Shown here: piece by piece, positions 3,695-10,932 of the stretch
Numbering within the stretch: position 1 is the stretch's first letter
Layout: each line of letters starts with the position of its first letter
Virus genome (UHGV): UHGV-0098765
Direction: 5' to 3' (one strand)
DNA length: 11,043 nt
From: a virus
The notes under the pieces: model-generated
What the model saw: only the letters and a program-made list of their open reading frames with translations
What the model was told of the DNA's origin: nothing
Databases searched by the model: none
Position numbers and translations under genes: made by a program

Positions 3695-4053
3695 TTCTTA
3701 TTCTCCGGTGCTTTTGGCATTACTGCCCAGTGAGTGATATTGACGTTTTCAAGGTCCCCGACCTGAAATGTCCACTGCCATTCTCCGTTTTCTTTTTGCC
3801 CCCAGGTGTCCCAGAGGGAACGCCAGCCAATCAGCCAGCCTTCTCCGTTAGCATCAAATAACAGAACACTTTCATTTGCTGGCGGCAGTTCAGCTGACAC
3901 TGGTATTATTTTGTTTTCCAGTGCCGCACATTTAGCTTCAAGCGCGTCGAATTTACGTACCAGGTACTCGGCATTTGTTTCGTTCACTTTCAGATCTCGC
4001 GGTACACATTTTCCGCGAAGAAACCCTTCCATTTCGAAAACATTCATGCGCAT
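3691..4053 (-). CDS. yfdS: DUF551-like prophage protein, YfdS-like (120 aa)
   Basis: C-terminal W-rich motif (GWLIGWRSLWDTWGQ...WQWTF...ITHWAVMPKAPE) is DUF551-like. Length and position after the YfdR-like gene match, from memory, the K-12 CPS-53 gene order yfdP-yfdQ-yfdR-yfdS. Overlaps the upstream gene by 10 nt. Confidence 0.7.
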   Translation of the reverse strand: MRMNVFEMEGFLRGKCVPRDLKVNETNAEYLVRKFDALEAKCAALENKIIPVSAELPPANESVLLFDANGEGWLIGWRSLWDTWGQKENGEWQWTFQVGDLENVNITHWAVMPKAPENKK

Positions 4054-4580
4054 TTGCGTAACTCCGATAACTCGTTAAAACGTTCCATAAACATCCCGTA
4101 GGCATGGCCCGGTGCCAGTGGAATCACGTTGAACATCTCTGTTGCCGGGATGCCTTCCAGTACAGGCCAGAAAGAGCCATCATCAAGCCCGAGATCGCGG
4201 CGTTCGGTTGCCAGCATGATGAGATCGGCATATTTCACAGGTGTGCTCATAACCGGGGGTAACCCGTATTTCTCACGGATTACGGCATCTATTTTTTCTT
4301 CCATCCGTTTATAGTCAGGAAGAAGGCGTTTCAGTGGCGCCGGGATGTCCTGGCAATACGCTTCTGTTGCATCATGCATTAACGCTTCAAAAGAAAATTC
4401 CTGCGGTACCAGCTGGCTGCAAAGCACCGCATGCTGGGCGACACTGTAGAAGTGTGAAAGATGTCCTGCAAAGCGACAGATATTTGAAAGGGAAACCGCG
4501 ATATCGTTAATAACGATGTCATCTTTATTTATCTTGTCATAATAAAAATGCTTCCCAGAAAAAGTTTTAATAAATGACAT
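4044..4580 (-). CDS. yfdR: HD-domain phosphohydrolase, YfdR-like 5'-deoxynucleotidase family (178 aa)
   Basis: H..H and HD signature (HFYSVAQHAV...LMHDATEAYCQDIPAPLK). Start taken at ATG 4580 (MSFIKTF...) with GGAG 6 nt upstream; the track ORF begins 9 codons earlier without an RBS. Confidence 0.8.
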   Translation of the reverse strand: MSFIKTFSGKHFYYDKINKDDIVINDIAVSLSNICRFAGHLSHFYSVAQHAVLCSQLVPQEFSFEALMHDATEAYCQDIPAPLKRLLPDYKRMEEKIDAVIREKYGLPPVMSTPVKYADLIMLATERRDLGLDDGSFWPVLEGIPATEMFNVIPLAPGHAYGMFMERFNELSELRKCA

Positions 4581-4707
4581 TTTGTTCTCCACGTATATGC
4601 GCTGCACCGCGCTGAATTCTGGTAAAAGGAAGCCCTCACCATCCGGTGATTATTGAGTTAATTACGTTTCCATAAATGCCCCCGCAGGGGCATTTGCAGT
4701 AATGAAA

Positions 4708-5532
4708 TCAGGCGGTGAAAGTACCAATAAAGGTTTCTACTTTGCTGTCTTTGAATTTCTCAACAAGCAGATCACGAAATTCGTTAGCCATTTCTTCCTG
4801 CACCGCTTCCAGCTGAATAATGCGCAGAACCAGTACAGGACGATCGCCAGTGATAATGCTGAGGCGTAATTTAAATGGACGTTCTTTCAGACCTTCAAAC
4901 GGAACGCATTTAAATTCAAATGCCACTGGCATAATATCTTTGGTCTTCGCTTCGACAGACTCCATCAGGGAGCGTTTGCCGCTGAAGTCATTATCTTCAA
5001 AATCAGCGGTCTGGTTTGCTTCAATCGTGATTTTACGGACAGCCGCAGCCGCTTTTGTTGCCTGAATAGCGTCACCATTAGCATCAAAGCCCACAAGGTA
5101 GTCGGCCCAGTCTTCAATCCATTCTGCCAGTGACTTCTGGGAGTTACGCTCGCCATTAACAGACAACAGAGCAGAGAACGGTGCTGTCTTTTTCAGTTTG
5201 AGAGTGGCGGTGTTATCTGCGTGACCAGGTTCATCAATAGTACCCAGATTAAGCACACTGACGGCTCGCATATTATCGGCATCGATAAAGCAGCGGGTGC
5301 CTTCATCTGCAAGATCTTTAGAATAACGGGTAAAGTCATCGATGCTGGCAGTGGAAAGCGCACCACGGAAACGGAAGCGATTTAAATTAAATTTTTCCAG
5401 ATCATGAATGCGGAAATTCTCAGGCAATGCCACAGCATCGGCACCAATCTTACTGATAATTTCATTAACACCCTGAGCAGAAATAAGGGCATGGATTTGA
5501 TTAATTGCGGTTGCGTCTAAGTTCTGAGACAT
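4708..5532 (-). CDS. yfdQ: YfdQ-like protein (DUF2303 family, 274 aa)
   Basis: Intact 274-aa ORF with GAGGA RBS. Size, position and general sequence character match my recollection of K-12 CPS-53 YfdQ. Confidence 0.8.
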
Positions 5533-6662: not shown

Positions 6663-7355
6663 TTAATTGTGTCGCTTAAGGGTTTGTGACTGACTGATTA
6701 AGACCTTTCCAAAGACCATAAACCGGTGTTCGTTTTCGCTGGTAATTCCCCATTCGCGGTAAATCTGATTATCAGAAATTACCAGCAGTTTATCAGGTAT
6801 CATTTGCAGTCGTTTGACGTAAATTTTATCATCAAAACCAAATACATATATACCATCCCCATCAAACTGATTGATACTGATATCAACGAAGATAAGATCT
6901 CCTGGCTCAATGGTTGGACACATACTGTCCCCACGAACGTTGATAACTTTAATGTGATTTGCTGGTCGTCCACCAAACATCGATACAGCATTATCAGTTC
7001 TGTATTCAATGGCATGAATCACATCAATGACATCACCGCCCTGGATAAGGCCATTTCCCGCACTGGCACTGACATCCAGCATTTCAATACGGAATACATC
7101 CTTCACCTGCGCAACATCCTCACTAATACTGTTTTTACATACAGTATTACTTTTGAGGTCTGAGGTAAAGAGATCAGCAATATCAACACCTAAGCTCCTG
7201 GCAATATTACTCAGGGCTTGTTCAGTGAATTGTTTCTGCTTACCTGTTTCGAGGCGCGAGATATTCGCCGCATCCACTCCTATTGCTTCAGCGAGATCGG
7301 CGATTTTCATGTTCTTCGCCTGGCGAAGTTGTCTGACTCGATTTCCTATGTTCAT
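6663..7355 (-). CDS. CI-like prophage repressor (N-terminal XRE-type HTH, C-terminal S24 LexA-like peptidase domain; 230 aa)
   Basis: HTH region RVRQLRQAKNMKIADLAEAIGVDAANISRLETGK; candidate Ala-Gly cleavage site (SASAGNG); catalytic Ser in GDSMCPTI and Lys in KRL. Divergent from the cro-like gene; apparently leaderless, with -10 TGTAAT 6 nt before the ATG. Confidence 0.9.
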   Translation of the reverse strand: MNIGNRVRQLRQAKNMKIADLAEAIGVDAANISRLETGKQKQFTEQALSNIARSLGVDIADLFTSDLKSNTVCKNSISEDVAQVKDVFRIEMLDVSASAGNGLIQGGDVIDVIHAIEYRTDNAVSMFGGRPANHIKVINVRGDSMCPTIEPGDLIFVDISINQFDGDGIYVFGFDDKIYVKRLQMIPDKLLVISDNQIYREWGITSENEHRFMVFGKVLISQSQTLKRHN

Positions 7356-7452: not shown

Positions 7453-7713
7453 ATGCAATCACCATTACGGAATGTGCGTAAGGCGCACGGATTTACTTTG
7501 CAGCATGTTGCTGCTGGCGTTCAGGTCAATCCAGCGACGCTGAGTCGTATTGAAAGACTGGAACAAATTCCATCTATCGATCTTGCAGAACGTCTGGCCA
7601 ATTTTTTTAAGGGTGAAATCAGCGAAATGCAGATTCTTTATCCGGCACGTTTTCAATCTAGCCAAAACCAGAATGGGTTTAAACCACAGGAACAGGAGGT
7701 AAGCCGTGGGTAA
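7453..7713 (+). CDS. Cro-like HTH transcriptional regulator (86 aa)
   Basis: GGAGG RBS; XRE-type HTH (AHGFTLQHVAAGVQVNPATLSRIER); divergent from the repressor gene across the operator region. Confidence 0.8.
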   Translation: MQSPLRNVRKAHGFTLQHVAAGVQVNPATLSRIERLEQIPSIDLAERLANFFKGEISEMQILYPARFQSSQNQNGFKPQEQEVSRG

Positions 7714-8257
7714 GCATCATTGGAAAGTGGAAAAACAACCTGAGTGGTACGTGAAAGCTGTCAGAAAAACTATCGCGGCATTGCCTGGGGGTTACGCTGA
7801 AGCTGCTGACTGGTTGGATGTAACAGAGAACGCTTTATTCAACCGCCTTCGTGCAGATGGCGATCAGATTTTCCCGTTGGGATGGGCAATGGTTTTACAG
7901 CGTGCTGCTGGCAATCACCACATTGCGGATGCTGTCGCACAGTCTGCTGGTGGGGTGTTTGTATCACTTCCTGAAATTGAGGAAGTAGAGAACGCCGATA
8001 TCAACCAGCGCCTGCTGGAGGTCATTGAACAGATCGGCAGTTATTCAAAACAGATTCGTTCAGCAATTGAAGACGGGGTGGTGGAACCACACGAGCAGGC
8101 AGCAATTAACGACGAGCTGTACATGTCAATTTCGAAGCTGCAGGAGCATGCAGCACTGGTCTACAAAATCTTTTGCGCTCCAGAAAAGAGTGACGCCCGC
8201 GAGTGTGCAGCTCCGGGCGCCGTGGCGTTTTGTGTCTGTGGAGAAACTAACGCATGA
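7706..8257 (+). CDS. Putative CII-like phage regulatory protein (183 aa), function hedged
   Basis: GTG start at 7706 with AGGAGG 6 nt upstream, overlapping the cro-like stop by 8 nt. Position immediately after cro. No specific motif verified. Confidence 0.55.
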   Translation: MGKHHWKVEKQPEWYVKAVRKTIAALPGGYAEAADWLDVTENALFNRLRADGDQIFPLGWAMVLQRAAGNHHIADAVAQSAGGVFVSLPEIEEVENADINQRLLEVIEQIGSYSKQIRSAIEDGVVEPHEQAAINDELYMSISKLQEHAALVYKIFCAPEKSDARECAAPGAVAFCVCGETNA

Positions 8258-9405
8258 ACAGTTTAACGGCAAATAACCGTTTGTCGCAACAGCTGGTGGT
8301 CAGCGTGGCTGAACACCTGTTGTTACGGCATGAATGCAGATTACCAAATCACCTGGCTGTAAGTAACCACAGAGAACTTTACCTGACTGTGGGGGGCGAG
8401 TTGTGCAGGAACTTAACCGCTGGTTTCGTGACGGAAGAGGGCTTTATGTCCATGTTATTCGTTGGGAGCCAGAAACACAGCGCGTTATCTATCTTCGCAA
8501 AGACTACCCGCATGAGTGCTTTAGTCCTTTGTGGAAATTCAGGCGTGATTTTGTTGAGTGTGAAGGACCACCAACACATTGATTCTGCCATTCCGGGACG
8601 TTACACTATTCAGGCACCTTATAAAACGGGTGCCGGGCGTGGAAACCCGGAATTCACCAAAGCGCACAACCGCGCTCTTGCGGTTTTTTTGTGTCATGAG
8701 CAGCATTACGCCCAAATTATGGTGGGGCGTGCAGGGCCAACTTCGGTTGGGCCGGGTTCTTTGGTGACCGGTATTTCCACCCCTGTACGTCTCACCACCA
8801 ATAAGGTCGTGGAAAGCCTTGGTGGTGAGTTATTAAAAATCACCAAAGAGGCTGCCATCATGGCTACGATCCCAACCCTCACTCAACCTGAAATTGCCAT
8901 CGTTGATGGTCAGGCTGTTACTTCATCCCTGGCTGTTGCCAACTTCTTCTCCAAACGTCATGACGATGTACTGAAAAAGATCCGCACGCTTGAATGCTCA
9001 GCATCATTCACTGCCCGCAATTTTTCGGTGAGTGATTACACTGATTGCACAGGTCGCAAACTTCCTTGCTACCAAATCACACGCGACGGTTTTGCGTTTC
9101 TTGCTATGGGTTTCACGGGTAAACGTGCTGCCCAGTTCAAAGAGGCATATATCAATGCCTTTAACCAGATGGAGAAACAGCTTTCAAAGCCCTATGTACC
9201 GAGCGACGTTGCACATAACGCCAGCGTTCTCTGTTCCTACATTTCATCAATTCATCAGGTCTGGCTGCAGCAGCTTTATCCTATGTTGGCAAAAGCCGAA
9301 TCTCCGCTGGCTGTTAGCTTATATGACTATATTAATGATGCTTCGGCGCTGGCCTGCCTCATAAATTTGTCGCTGAACCCTTCAGAGGTAAGGGGGCGCA
9401 AATGA
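8254..9405 (+). CDS. Rha-family phage regulatory protein (Rha domain in the C-terminal half); alternative start at ATG 8840 gives a 188-aa canonical Rha protein
   Basis: ATG 8254 overlaps the CII-like stop (ATGA) with a GGAGAAA RBS, and the frame stays open for 383 codons. The recognisable Rha domain (VDGQAVTSSLAVANFFSKRHDDVLKKIR...YQITRDGFAFLAMGFTGKRAAQFKEAYINAFNQMEKQL) begins only after ATG 8840, which has its own AAAGAGG RBS. A terminator-like hairpin with a T7 run (8648-8670) lies inside the N-terminal part. Confidence 0.45.
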   Translation: MNSLTANNRLSQQLVVSVAEHLLLRHECRLPNHLAVSNHRELYLTVGGELCRNLTAGFVTEEGFMSMLFVGSQKHSALSIFAKTTRMSALVLCGNSGVILLSVKDHQHIDSAIPGRYTIQAPYKTGAGRGNPEFTKAHNRALAVFLCHEQHYAQIMVGRAGPTSVGPGSLVTGISTPVRLTTNKVVESLGGELLKITKEAAIMATIPTLTQPEIAIVDGQAVTSSLAVANFFSKRHDDVLKKIRTLECSASFTARNFSVSDYTDCTGRKLPCYQITRDGFAFLAMGFTGKRAAQFKEAYINAFNQMEKQLSKPYVPSDVAHNASVLCSYISSIHQVWLQQLYPMLAKAESPLAVSLYDYINDASALACLINLSLNPSEVRGRK

Positions 9406-9626
9406 TCCGGAATATTTTCAAACGGTTTACCAATCAGACCTTCCGTTGTCCTCGTCCGGGTCAGTGGTACACCACGCCTGCAGGGCATGTTCTACGTGTT
9501 AGCCTGGTTGACCGTGAATGTCAGAAAGTGATTTGTGAACCGCTGGGCCGTAATTACCGCGTCAGTATGCCGCTTATAGCATTTCGCTCTGGAAAAAACA
9601 TGAAGCATCTCGGAGGTGCAGCATGA
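9402..9626 (+). CDS. Hypothetical small Cys-containing protein (74 aa)
   Basis: ATGA overlaps at both ends (9402-9405 and 9623-9626), consistent with translational coupling inside the replication operon. Confidence 0.5.
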   Translation: MIRNIFKRFTNQTFRCPRPGQWYTTPAGHVLRVSLVDRECQKVICEPLGRNYRVSMPLIAFRSGKNMKHLGGAA

Positions 9627-10441
9627 GTATGGAGCTGATGGTTAAAGCGATGAAAATTCGAGTGGGTAATCCATTGCGAAAACTGGTTCTGATCAAGCTG
9701 GCTGATAATGCCAGCGATCAGGGTGAGTGCTGGCCCAGCTACCAGCATATTGCTGACCAGTGCGAGATTAGCAAACGTTCTGTGATGAATCATATTGCGG
9801 CCCTTTGTGATTCCGGGCTGGTAAAAAAAGTCACCCGGAAAGGTGAAAAAGGTAACTCAAGTAATATCTATCTCCTTCATCTTGATGGTGCAGGAGATTC
9901 ACTAGGGGGTAGTGCAAATGATTCACTATCTGGTGCAGCAAATTCACCAGGTAGTGCAGGAGTTGCACCAGGGGGTGGTGCAGGAGATTCACCCAGAACC
10001 AGTCACTCTTTTGAACCAGTCAATGAACCAGTCAATGAACCAATAGCTGTTGGTGCATCTGCTGATGAGTCTGTGCGAGTTCGTTCAAACCGACCGGAAT
10101 ACTCTCCGGAGTTTGAGCAGGCATGGCTGGCATATCCCAAACGTGCTGGTGGCAATTCAAAATCAGCGGCCTTCAAAGCCTGGAAAGCCCGTTTGAACGA
10201 GGGGGTAAACCCCGAAACCATGCTGGAAGGTGTGAAACGCTACGCGGGCTGGGTATCTGCGATGGGCAATAGCGGCACACAATTTGTGAAACAGGCTGTC
10301 ACGTTCTTTGGTCCGGATCGTCATTTCGAAGAATCCTGGGAAGTTCCTGCGGTATCTGCAGCTAGACGTGAGGACCCGTACTTCAAAGCCAGTTACGACA
10401 ACGTGGACTACAGCCAGATCCCGGCAGGATTCAGGGGGTGA
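9623..10441 (+). CDS. Replication initiator, lambda O-like organisation (N-terminal winged-helix DNA-binding domain, internal iterons, C-terminal domain; 272 aa)
   Basis: GGAGG RBS 6 nt upstream. N-terminus (LRKLVLIKLADNASDQGECWPSYQHIADQCEISKRSVMNHIAALCDSGLV) is replication-protein HTH-like. A low-complexity linker (GAGDSLGGSANDSLSGAANSPGSAGVAPGGGAGDSP) is encoded by a direct-repeat array. Confidence 0.75.
   Translation: MSMELMVKAMKIRVGNPLRKLVLIKLADNASDQGECWPSYQHIADQCEISKRSVMNHIAALCDSGLVKKVTRKGEKGNSSNIYLLHLDGAGDSLGGSANDSLSGAANSPGSAGVAPGGGAGDSPRTSHSFEPVNEPVNEPIAVGASADESVRVRSNRPEYSPEFEQAWLAYPKRAGGNSKSAAFKAWKARLNEGVNPETMLEGVKRYAGWVSAMGNSGTQFVKQAVTFFGPDRHFEESWEVPAVSAARREDPYFKASYDNVDYSQIPAGFRG
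9887..10036. repeat. Iteron array (putative prophage replication origin) inside the O-like gene
   Basis: Five direct repeats of a 16-bp unit RGTGCA-N6-TKCAC at 9887, 9911, 9932, 9953 and 9977 (spacing 21-24 bp), each with inverted GTG/CAC ends. Followed by tandem 12-bp GAACCAGTCAAT x2.6 at 10013-10044. Confidence 0.7.
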
Positions 10442-10443
10442 TC

Positions 10444-10932
10444 ATGAGTCTTTTGAATGAAGTTCAGAAATTCATTGAAGCCCATCCGGGGTGTACTTCC
10501 GGAGACATTGCGGATGCTTTTGCAGGTTACTCACGACAGCGCGTTCTGCAGTCAGCAAGCAAGTTACGTCAGAGTGGGCGTGTGGCTCACCGTTGTGAAG
10601 GAGATACACGCAGACATTTCCCACACCTGACTGAGAGAGCGCAGGAACCGGAACCACAACCAGTTCGTGAAACCAGACCTGTGCGCAATTTCTATGTCGG
10701 CACTAACGATCCCCGGGTGATTTTGTGCCTGACCCGCCAGGCGGAAGAACTGGAGTCCAGGGGCTTATACCGTCGTGCTGCAACGGTGTGGATGGCGGCA
10801 TTCCGTGAAAGCCACTCCCAGCCAGAACGAAACAATTTTCTGGCGCGTCGTGAGCAGTGTTTACGGAAAAGCAGCAAGCGCGCTGCATCGGGTGAAGAGT
10901 GGTATCTGTCAGGGAATTACGTGGGGGCTTAA
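10444..10932 (+). CDS. PerC-family-like transcriptional regulator (162 aa from ATG 10444; ORF track starts at GTG 10438)
   Basis: AGGGGG 5 nt before ATG 10444; overlaps the O-like stop. C-terminal segment AEELESRGLYRRAATVWMAAFRESH...REQCLRKS resembles the PerC/Pch family motif as I remember it. Confidence 0.55.
   Translation: MSLLNEVQKFIEAHPGCTSGDIADAFAGYSRQRVLQSASKLRQSGRVAHRCEGDTRRHFPHLTERAQEPEPQPVRETRPVRNFYVGTNDPRVILCLTRQAEELESRGLYRRAATVWMAAFRESHSQPERNNFLARREQCLRKSSKRAASGEEWYLSGNYVGA

Follow-up and report, generated by a model that had tools for sequence, protein, structure and literature searches.

Results

Direct repeats in the linker codons of the initiator gene

The window analysed here is a stretch of 11,043 nucleotides from the virus genome UHGV-0098765. 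It covers the early region of a lambdoid temperate phage with approximately 98% identity to mEp460, SfV and many Shiga toxin (Stx) 2a- and Stx2c-converting phages, and by its sequence the phage is assigned to the SfV/mEp460/ST64B/Stx2c-type lambdoid phages. Inside the replication initiator gene lie an array of direct repeats (iterons) and a tandem 12-mer, for which an original prediction, made from the DNA letters, had proposed the role of an iteron-type replication origin. The gene comprises the following features:

9623 to 10441, plus strand: replication initiator gene, 'replication protein' of 272 amino acids
9623 to 9886, plus strand: codons of the winged-helix domain (amino acids 1 to 88; AlphaFold2, Foldseek)
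9840 to 9880: least stable duplex near the array (68% A+T, GC 0.37), encoding the wing
9888 to 9902: iteron 1, GTGCAGGAGATTCAC
9912 to 9926: iteron 2, GTGCAAATGATTCAC
9933 to 9947: iteron 3, GTGCAGCAAATTCAC
9954 to 9968: iteron 4, GTGCAGGAGTTGCAC, perfect 5+5 dyad symmetry, pattern matched on both strands with 0 mismatches
9978 to 9992: iteron 5, GTGCAGGAGATTCAC, adjoining the conserved block
9993 to 10042, plus strand: conserved block (candidate origin core), CC-AGAACCAGTCAC-TCTTT-TGAACCAGTCAA-TGAACCAGTCAA-TGAACCA
10100 to 10438, plus strand: codons of the C-terminal domain (amino acids 160 to 272; PHROG phrog_1701, phrog_26426)

The five direct repeats, predicted with a spacing of 21 to 24 bp, were found where they had been located, at distances of 24, 21, 21 and 24 bp. 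They share the consensus GTGCA-N5-T(G/T)CAC and all fit GTGCANNNNNTKCAC with 0 mismatches. The unit, originally given as 16 bp, is a genuine repeat, but a 15-bp dyad-symmetric core flanked by conserved bases (T(A/G) at the 5' and C at the 3' side) describes it better; symmetry is 5/5 in iteron 4 and 4/5 in the other four. Tandem Repeats Finder reported 9888 to 9993 with a period of 24, 4.8 copies and a score of 67. With at most one mismatch, the iteron pattern occurred 13 times on both strands of the window compared to 2.06 expected matches, a count reached in 0 of 200 shuffles. All exact matches are confined to 9888 to 9992, and no other cluster is present in the window. A family of five 15-mers (up to 3 mismatches) was obtained neither by shuffling the codon order of the gene (0/300, maximum 3) nor by re-drawing the same protein with synonymous codons (0/300, maximum 4, once).

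Iterons and 12-mers together form codons 89 to 140 of the open reading frame (ORF). Their predicted location in the linker region of the initiator is borne out by the ORF, by these codon positions and by AlphaFold2, which models amino acids 91 to 157 as disordered (predicted local distance difference test, pLDDT, <50) between the N- and C-terminal domains. Since the linker is predicted to be disordered, a sequence imposed by the DNA should be tolerable there. The peptide read from the iterons is GAGDSLGG / SANDSLS / GAANSPG / SAGVAPGG / GAGDSPRT. Within amino acids 88 to 127, alanine is encoded by GCA in 7 of 7 cases (compared to 30% outside), and serine mostly by TCA.

No promoter-like site was found in 9300 to 10600, and the array region gave just two terminator-like matches, both on the minus strand and at chance level. 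An overlapping RNA element was considered and rejected: Rfam at gathering thresholds found nothing in 9600 to 10450, and the single-strand fold of 9880 to 10060 was not unusual (z −1.38).

Conservation of the array in related initiator genes

Three sets of loci were compared: 10 annotated phages, 80 diverse genomic loci retrieved with N-domain peptide patterns, and 80 near-identical viral contigs. The diverse genomic loci (55 to 76% identity) stem from Rahnella, Pseudomonas, Xenorhabdus, Photorhabdus, Providencia, Shewanella, Marinomonas, Aeromonas, Haemophilus and others. The original prediction had been staked on conservation of the repeats at the DNA level in homologous initiator genes, and such conservation was found in 86 of 89 diverse loci, which at the same position in the gene, beginning at about nucleotide 262 to 295, carry a dyad-symmetric 15-mer in three to seven copies. 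Across the 89 loci, 279 of 301 spacings measure 21 to 24 bp, and the last interval is nearly always 24 bp, a family rule followed by the step from iteron 4 to 5 of the window. The copies of 44 arrays stand in more than one reading frame, through a pair of 23- and 22-bp spacings; in locus L017, the same DNA motif gives GAADS in one frame and VQEIH in another. Since one motif is read in different frames, it is the DNA that is repeated and not the peptide. Among near-identical relatives (n = 81) the five-iteron array is stable, with variation mostly in the spacers. Copy-number variants include one relative with seven iterons (L192) and one close relative with an extra 12-mer, and the initiators of close relatives range from 242 to 302 amino acids.

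These results bear on the possibility that the repeats are the DNA image of a slippage-prone, low-complexity Gly/Ala/Ser/Pro linker and have no function in cis. Such an origin of the repeats would fit the five in-frame copies of the window with their spacings in multiples of 3, the repetitive and predictedly disordered peptide, and the variable copy number among close relatives. It is, however, largely refuted by the 44 of 89 relatives in which reading in two frames gives unrelated peptides. Dyad symmetry, helical register, the GCA/TCA codon bias, the failure of synonymous re-drawing to reproduce the array and a motif that changes with the recognition helix (see below) argue in the same direction, so that slippage is regarded as highly improbable.

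A further observation concerns the 9-nt spacer before the last iteron (9969 to 9977 in the window), which holds a run of 4 to 5 G in 52 of 89 loci and of 4 to 5 C in 22 of 89. These runs, read as Gly-Gly or Pro-Pro, suggest a constraint on a G:C tract in the DNA, on either strand. Matches in the plasmid collection were mostly phage-sized records (approximately 25 to 55 kb), besides few large replicons and mislabelled chromosomes; a small plasmid carrying the module, which would amount to a natural ori-cloning experiment, was not among them.

The initiator and its presumed recognition helix

The initiator matches the Pfam family HTH_36 (PF13730) at amino acids 17 to 67 with 43.5 bits (cut-off 25, E 2.8e-11), while a match to DnaD_N (PF21984) stayed below the gathering score (23.2 bits, cut-off 27). 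The Pfam scan (E ≤0.01) lists only HTH_36, DnaD_N, B-block_TFIIIC and HTH_20 and contains no match to Phage_rep_O (PF04492), the family of lambda O, or to Rep_3 and the RepA/RepE/pi plasmid initiator families. Labels of the initiator as 'O-like' stem from PHROG and GenBank annotation: the whole protein matches phrog_270, 'replication initiation protein' (E 1.4e-88), and shares 98% identity with the protein annotated as 'replication protein' in mEp460, SfV and Stx2c phages. In the AlphaFold2 model, an N-terminal winged helix (amino acids 1 to 88, pLDDT 73 to 94) includes a helix at 51 to 64 and strands at 67 to 73 and 79 to 85, the beta-hairpin wing thus covering 67 to 85, and a three-helix C-terminal domain follows at 160 to 215. 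The helix at 51 to 64 (ISKRSVMNHIAALC) is, according to the model, presumed to be the recognition helix. Foldseek with the whole model returned generic winged helices for the N-domain, among them the DnaD N-domain 2v79 (E approximately 0.03), and the C-domain was too short and its confidence too low for placement. Sequence searches gave no homologue of solved structure for the whole protein or its C-terminal tail, and neither Pfam nor NCBIfam offered a family for the C-domain.

Iteron half-sites and motifs of this helix pair up nearly one-to-one over 184 distinct loci:

SKRSVMN or SRRSV(M/I)N: GTGCA..T(G/T)CAC
SKRSVMR: GTGAC..GTCAC
SKSAVRN: TGCCA..TGGCA
SKSAVRD: TGCCG left half-site
DRSTVRK: TAGGC...
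(G/A/S)RSTVK: GGGC(A/G)..TGCCC

Mutual information is concentrated at those helix positions that correspond to R52, S53, M55 and N56 in the window protein, and the motif shifts with the recognition helix, not with host or linker composition. This pattern is as expected if the recognition helix reads the iteron, and it supports the iterons as putative cognate sites of the N-domain.

A conserved block adjoining the last iteron

The tandem 12-mer of the original prediction proved to be real, and it belongs to the DNA element that is best conserved in the entire module. The block holds 3.6 copies of the 12-mer GAACCAGTCA, for which exact matches exist in the window only at 9996, 10013 and 10025; the 12-mer array itself spans 9995 to 10042, of which Tandem Repeats Finder reported 10012 to 10042 (period 12, 2.6 copies, 100% match). 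Conserved throughout the family is the part from 9993 to 10029 (approximately 35 bp), and the window has one further full 12-mer copy. In 89 of 90 loci, the distance from the last iteron to the family form, CC-AGAACCAGTCAC-TCT-TYT-GAACCAGTCAAT-GAACC, which comes after it, is fixed.

Synonymous sites within the block are frozen. Among 57 non-identical loci, Arg is encoded by AGA (57/57), Thr by ACC (50/50), Ser by AGT (55/55), His by CAC (57/57), a further Ser by TCT (54/54), Glu by GAA (56/56), Pro by CCA (54/57) and Val by GTC (53/53). In contrast, the third positions of invariant N-domain residues are near random (0.03 to 0.3 bits at 4-fold sites). The conservation of the block is not a selection artefact, because the loci were found via peptide patterns of the N-domain. 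When the block was used in reverse as a DNA pattern against the viral collection, each distinct match with enough upstream sequence followed what appears to be the same N-domain, including three loci without the CWPS-type motif used for N-domain detection. The block is kept whatever the iteron type, C-terminal domain, helicase partner or host, with host GC contents from approximately 38% to approximately 62%. It is concluded from this comparison that the block is most probably a cis-acting DNA element of the same module as iterons and N-domain; candidate roles are an unwinding site, a helicase-entry element or a second binding site.

DNA-level conservation breaks off approximately 38 nt into the block, at the exact point from which the C-terminal domains fall into several unrelated classes (at least about nine, a loose count, as single-linkage clustering over-merged class 1). 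The block could hence be a recombination 'linker', a patch of homology at which the module of N-domain and iterons is swapped against modules of C-terminal domains and helicase partners. In lambdoid phages, conserved patches are known as places of mosaic junctions, an example being 'sequence 5' of HK620, which is mentioned in PMC3349717. However, near-total synonymous invariance in at least 57 non-identical loci, with hosts of approximately 38 to 62% GC, needs continuous purifying selection on the DNA. The internal periodicity of 12 nt and the fixed distance to the last iteron also argue against a mere homology patch, and a junction where a conserved cis element ends is to be expected as a by-product rather than being an alternative cause. 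A recombination linker is accordingly judged improbable.

Averaged over the family, no 30-mer has a less stable duplex than the block (z 1.6). In the window, the nearest-neighbour stability calculated for 500 bp on either side of the array is lowest at position 9845, in the left flank (9840 to 9880). This flank was rejected as a selected AT-rich unwinding element, for its synonymous sites vary normally across the family, and with such ordinary variation it is not under selection at the DNA level. As an alternative melting site it is possible but unsupported.

Downstream partners and the C-terminal domain

The initiator gene is situated in the early-right (pR) operon after cro and cII, which is the position of lambda O. 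The next gene encodes an IstB/DnaC-like ATPase in AsXd-1 and in loci L027 and L053. In Stx2a_F403 its product is a Toprim primase, in Klebsiella phage ST15-VIM1phi2.1 a Phage_lambda_P protein (E 1.8e-58), and in L006 and L065 a DnaB-like helicase. From these gene orders, the family holds the lambda O position with swappable partners. No helicase or loader partner is encoded directly downstream in the window, where the next gene product is a PerC-like regulator. The complete genome record of mEp460, in which the 98%-identical gene is the sole annotated replication gene, likewise contains no annotated helicase, loader or primase. Since none of these is annotated as phage-encoded, the host DnaB-DnaC must be used.

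PHROGs place the N- and C-terminal halves of the initiator in separate families, the C-domain matching phrog_1701, 'DnaD-like helicase loader' (E 9e-33), and phrog_26426. The same C-domain is joined to an unrelated N-domain in the Stx2d-converting phage Stx2_112808 (L008). On this sequence evidence the C-domain is a separately shuffled module, and its role presumably lies in recruiting the helicase machinery. The initiator gene of L008 contains, at nucleotides 454 to 501, four tandem 12-bp repeats (ACAGAGAATAC-like), also in linker codons and unlike those of the window, which suggests that the origin-in-linker design may recur with other DNA-binding domains.

The C-terminus of the initiator, SQIPAGFRG (amino acids 264 to 272, 10412 to 10438), shares 8 of 9 residues with that of E. 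coli K-12 DnaT, SQIPPGFRG (pairwise E 0.01), and in both proteins the motif is found at the extreme C-terminus. Three enterobacterial proteins have ends resembling the last 19 residues of DnaT, namely the initiators of L027 and L071, both with a C-domain different from that of the window protein, and the product of the ORF after the truncated initiator of L023. In other hosts, the tails of family members are likewise short but different (..DFI, ..NEYL, ..CNW and ..LTF, for example). The DnaT-like tail may serve the helicase-loading machinery as a docking peptide specific to the host, which we regard as a lead and not as a finding. For DnaT itself, the way in which DnaB/DnaC are recruited is stated to be unknown (PMC13377028), and no paper on the function of the DnaT C-terminal tail was found in our literature search.

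Other features of the window

The genes surrounding the initiator gene are:

6663 to 7355, minus strand: CI-like S24 repressor
7453 to 7713: Cro-like protein
7706 to 8257: CII-like protein
8254 to 9405: Ash/Rha protein
9402 to 9626: ORF of 74 amino acids
10438 to 10932: PerC-like regulator, followed by a Dam-like methyltransferase gene

Two RNAs were detected by Rfam inside the Ash/Rha ORF, both on the plus strand: the Hfq-binding RNA isrK (8614 to 8690, 67.9 bits) and a C4 antisense RNA (8715 to 8802, 83.6 bits). Together they look like a c4-antirepressor immunity module of the P1/P7 type, and the start of the 383 amino acid Ash/Rha ORF may have been over-called. Five Chi sites (GCTGGTGG) are present, all on the plus strand (1484, 7946, 8292, 10145 and 10955), of which the one at 10145 is located inside the initiator gene; 0.34 were expected in the window, and 0 of 200 shuffles reached five. 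Lambdoid phages rich in Chi are the topic of a 2025 paper (PMC12315714). Further short tandem repeats are TCAATGACA (3.3 copies, 7006 to 7035, inside the cI-like gene) and CTGTTCTGA (2.7 copies, 1175 to 1198).

Two minus-strand ORFs (4044 to 4607 and 4708 to 5532) correspond to mEp460 gp33 and gp34 by position. In the mEp460 annotation, gp33 is a deoxyribonucleoside 5'-monophosphate phosphatase and gp34 a DUF2303 protein similar to a CPS-53/KpLE1 prophage protein of K-12. We take the two ORFs to resemble YfdR and YfdQ of K-12. DnaA binding is reported for K-12 YfdR, and overexpression of the yfdQ-yfdT cluster reportedly inhibits initiation at oriC (PMC4776307). The phage may thus also interfere with host replication through these YfdR/YfdQ-like ORFs.

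Discussion

The region from 9888 to 10042, within the linker codons of the phage's own initiator gene (9623 to 10441), is very probably the vegetative replication origin of this lambdoid phage. The likely origin put forward in the original prediction is thereby supported by comparison of relatives, through conservation of the array, its frame shifts, its co-variation with the recognition helix and the gene context.

Several points weigh against this interpretation. In the searchable literature, which did not extend to the older SfV and ST64B genome papers, there is no report of binding, unwinding or origin firing for this initiator family. Scans for stability and GC content found no strongly AT-rich tract adjoining the iterons; the block of the window has a GC content of 0.43 compared to approximately 0.50 around it and is not the least stable stretch of the window. 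The iterons of the window all lie in one reading frame, so the frame argument rests on the relatives, and the co-variation counts are inflated by shared ancestry, for which they were not corrected. Two loci deviate: L010 (Salmonella phage SF6) retains one recognisable iteron and the block, and L011 (Vibrio phage 252E42.2), with an N-domain of 30% identity, has no block but five GGTGACAGAGAGTCAC iterons, of which one is read in a different frame.

Alternatively, the initiator might bind the repeats mainly for regulation, by roadblock autoregulation or handcuffing, and replication might start elsewhere in the genome. In plasmid replicons, iterons also serve for autoregulation or handcuffing, and the lack of a strong AT-rich unwinding tract by the array would agree with such a role. 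However, the array is found inside a coding region and not at a promoter (none was detected around it), and in every case the frozen block and the N-domain accompany it, the three forming one module irrespective of what comes next. No second iteron cluster in the window offers itself as the origin, and the precedent of lambda, P22 and L puts the origin at such arrays. Regulation and origin function are, moreover, not mutually exclusive. A purely regulatory array is considered unlikely.

Iterons cognate to the initiator are situated midway along the initiator gene in lambda and in the Stx phages 933W and P27, the latter two with six (PMC7466680), and inside it in lambda, P22 and phage L (PMC8022706). 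As in lambda, with its ori in O, and in 933W and P27, the array occupies the codons between a DNA-binding N-domain and a partner-binding C-domain. Lambda-type origins have four to six dyad-symmetric direct repeats about two helical turns apart, and the window has five. Shared as well are the placement in the pR operon after cro and cII, an iteron number that varies among relatives, and a flank by the iterons that is common to phages with different iterons. Unlike in lambda, the initiator belongs to HTH_36 and not to Phage_rep_O, the flank is a sequence-conserved, mildly A+T-rich 12-mer block instead of an AT-rich tract of approximately 40 bp, and the phage has no P-like loader gene. The parallel to lambda ori drawn originally consequently holds for position and array, but not for the O family and the AT-rich tract.

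P22 and phage L offer a similar picture: their gene 18 products are distantly related or unrelated initiators, each with its own distinct repeats inside the coding region, which were interpreted as origin from sequence and genetics (PMC8022706). Phage L differs by six imprecise 11-bp repeats of TGTCCAACGGA, and both P22 and L encode the DnaB-type helicase gp12 downstream. Protein family and gene neighbourhood are shared with the non-lambdoid 'Eru' replication regions of Stx phages, of which Eru5, 6, 8, 11 and 13 carry HTH_36 proteins; in Eru6, an Rha/Ash protein precedes the HTH_36 protein as it does here. The window is 98% identical to Stx2a_1447 and Stx2c phages, and the Eru5 reference phage F403 is locus L005 of our survey. 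The Eru papers classify gene content and mention the HTH_36 proteins, on whose role, by their own account, there is no knowledge (PMC8951638, PMC8044961); text searches of both found no occurrence of 'iteron' or 'origin of replication'.

Iteron plasmids (F, P1, R6K and pPS10, with RepA, RepE or pi) resemble the module in combining a winged-helix initiator, directly repeated sites in helical register and an adjoining unwinding region, for which the module has a candidate. Plasmid iterons are located outside the rep gene, and plasmid DNA unwinding elements are AT-rich, usually with DnaA boxes. The module differs from these plasmids in that its iterons are inside the initiator gene and its protein has no match to Rep_3 or a related Pfam family. 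The N-terminal winged helix, with its weak matches to the DnaD N-domain by Pfam and fold, also bears a likeness to the replisome organisers of Gram-positive phages and to DnaD. Origin repeats lie inside the organiser gene in SPP1 (G38P/oriL) and in the rep genes of the lactococcal phages Tuc2009 and TP901-1, with a loader or helicase gene downstream. The initiator differs from these organisers in having no significant sequence membership with them, and in its hosts and partners.

Searching the literature for the sequences of iterons and block, and for the origins of SfV, ST64B and Stx2c phages, yielded no description of this one; the older genome papers of SfV, ST64B, Sf6 and HK620 were not covered by this search. 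The arrangement as such is already known. What is new is the initiator family, HTH_36, for which no described origin was found, and the conserved block is the most novel piece of the finding.

A mechanism can be proposed as follows. Initiator dimers made from the pR operon would bind the five iterons through their winged helix, all on the same face of the DNA, and assemble into an O-some-like nucleoprotein complex, which would distort or open the adjoining conserved block. The block is favoured as the opening site because it is the only flank under selection at the DNA level, and it would possibly be held as a single strand by a conserved part of the N-domain. The C-terminal domain would then bring in the replicative helicase, in the phage of the window the host DnaB-DnaC, possibly by way of the DnaT-like tail.

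Going beyond this, the block of approximately 35 bp, CC-AGAACCAGTCAC-TCTTT-TGAACCAGTCAA-TGAACC, is tentatively seen as an undescribed universal 'origin core' of a large gammaproteobacterial prophage family, acting as an unwinding or helicase-entry element that is sequence-specific and not just AT-rich, an idea we hold to be somewhat less than an even chance. It might, with similar reservation, be read by the invariant part of the winged-helix initiator or by a host factor that Vibrio, Pseudomonas, Haemophilus and the enterobacteria share. If this is true, origin specificity (iterons and recognition helix) and origin opening (block) would be separable and swappable in a natural system.

The module is widespread, both in SfV, ST64B, mEp460, cdtI-type and many Stx2a- and Stx2c-converting phages and in prophages of Pseudomonas, Xenorhabdus, Shewanella, Vibrio, Aeromonas and Haemophilus. 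The frozen block represents a clean case of synonymous sites dictated by a cis-acting DNA function, and annotation of these initiator genes, as well as analyses of their ratio of non-synonymous to synonymous substitutions (dN/dS), should allow for this constraint. The replication rate after induction affects the dosage of the Shiga toxin gene, and the workings of the 'non-lambdoid' replication regions are undescribed in the recent Stx-phage literature. A located origin together with a readable code of iteron and recognition helix would allow predictions on specificity swaps and on incompatibility or exclusion of co-resident prophages.

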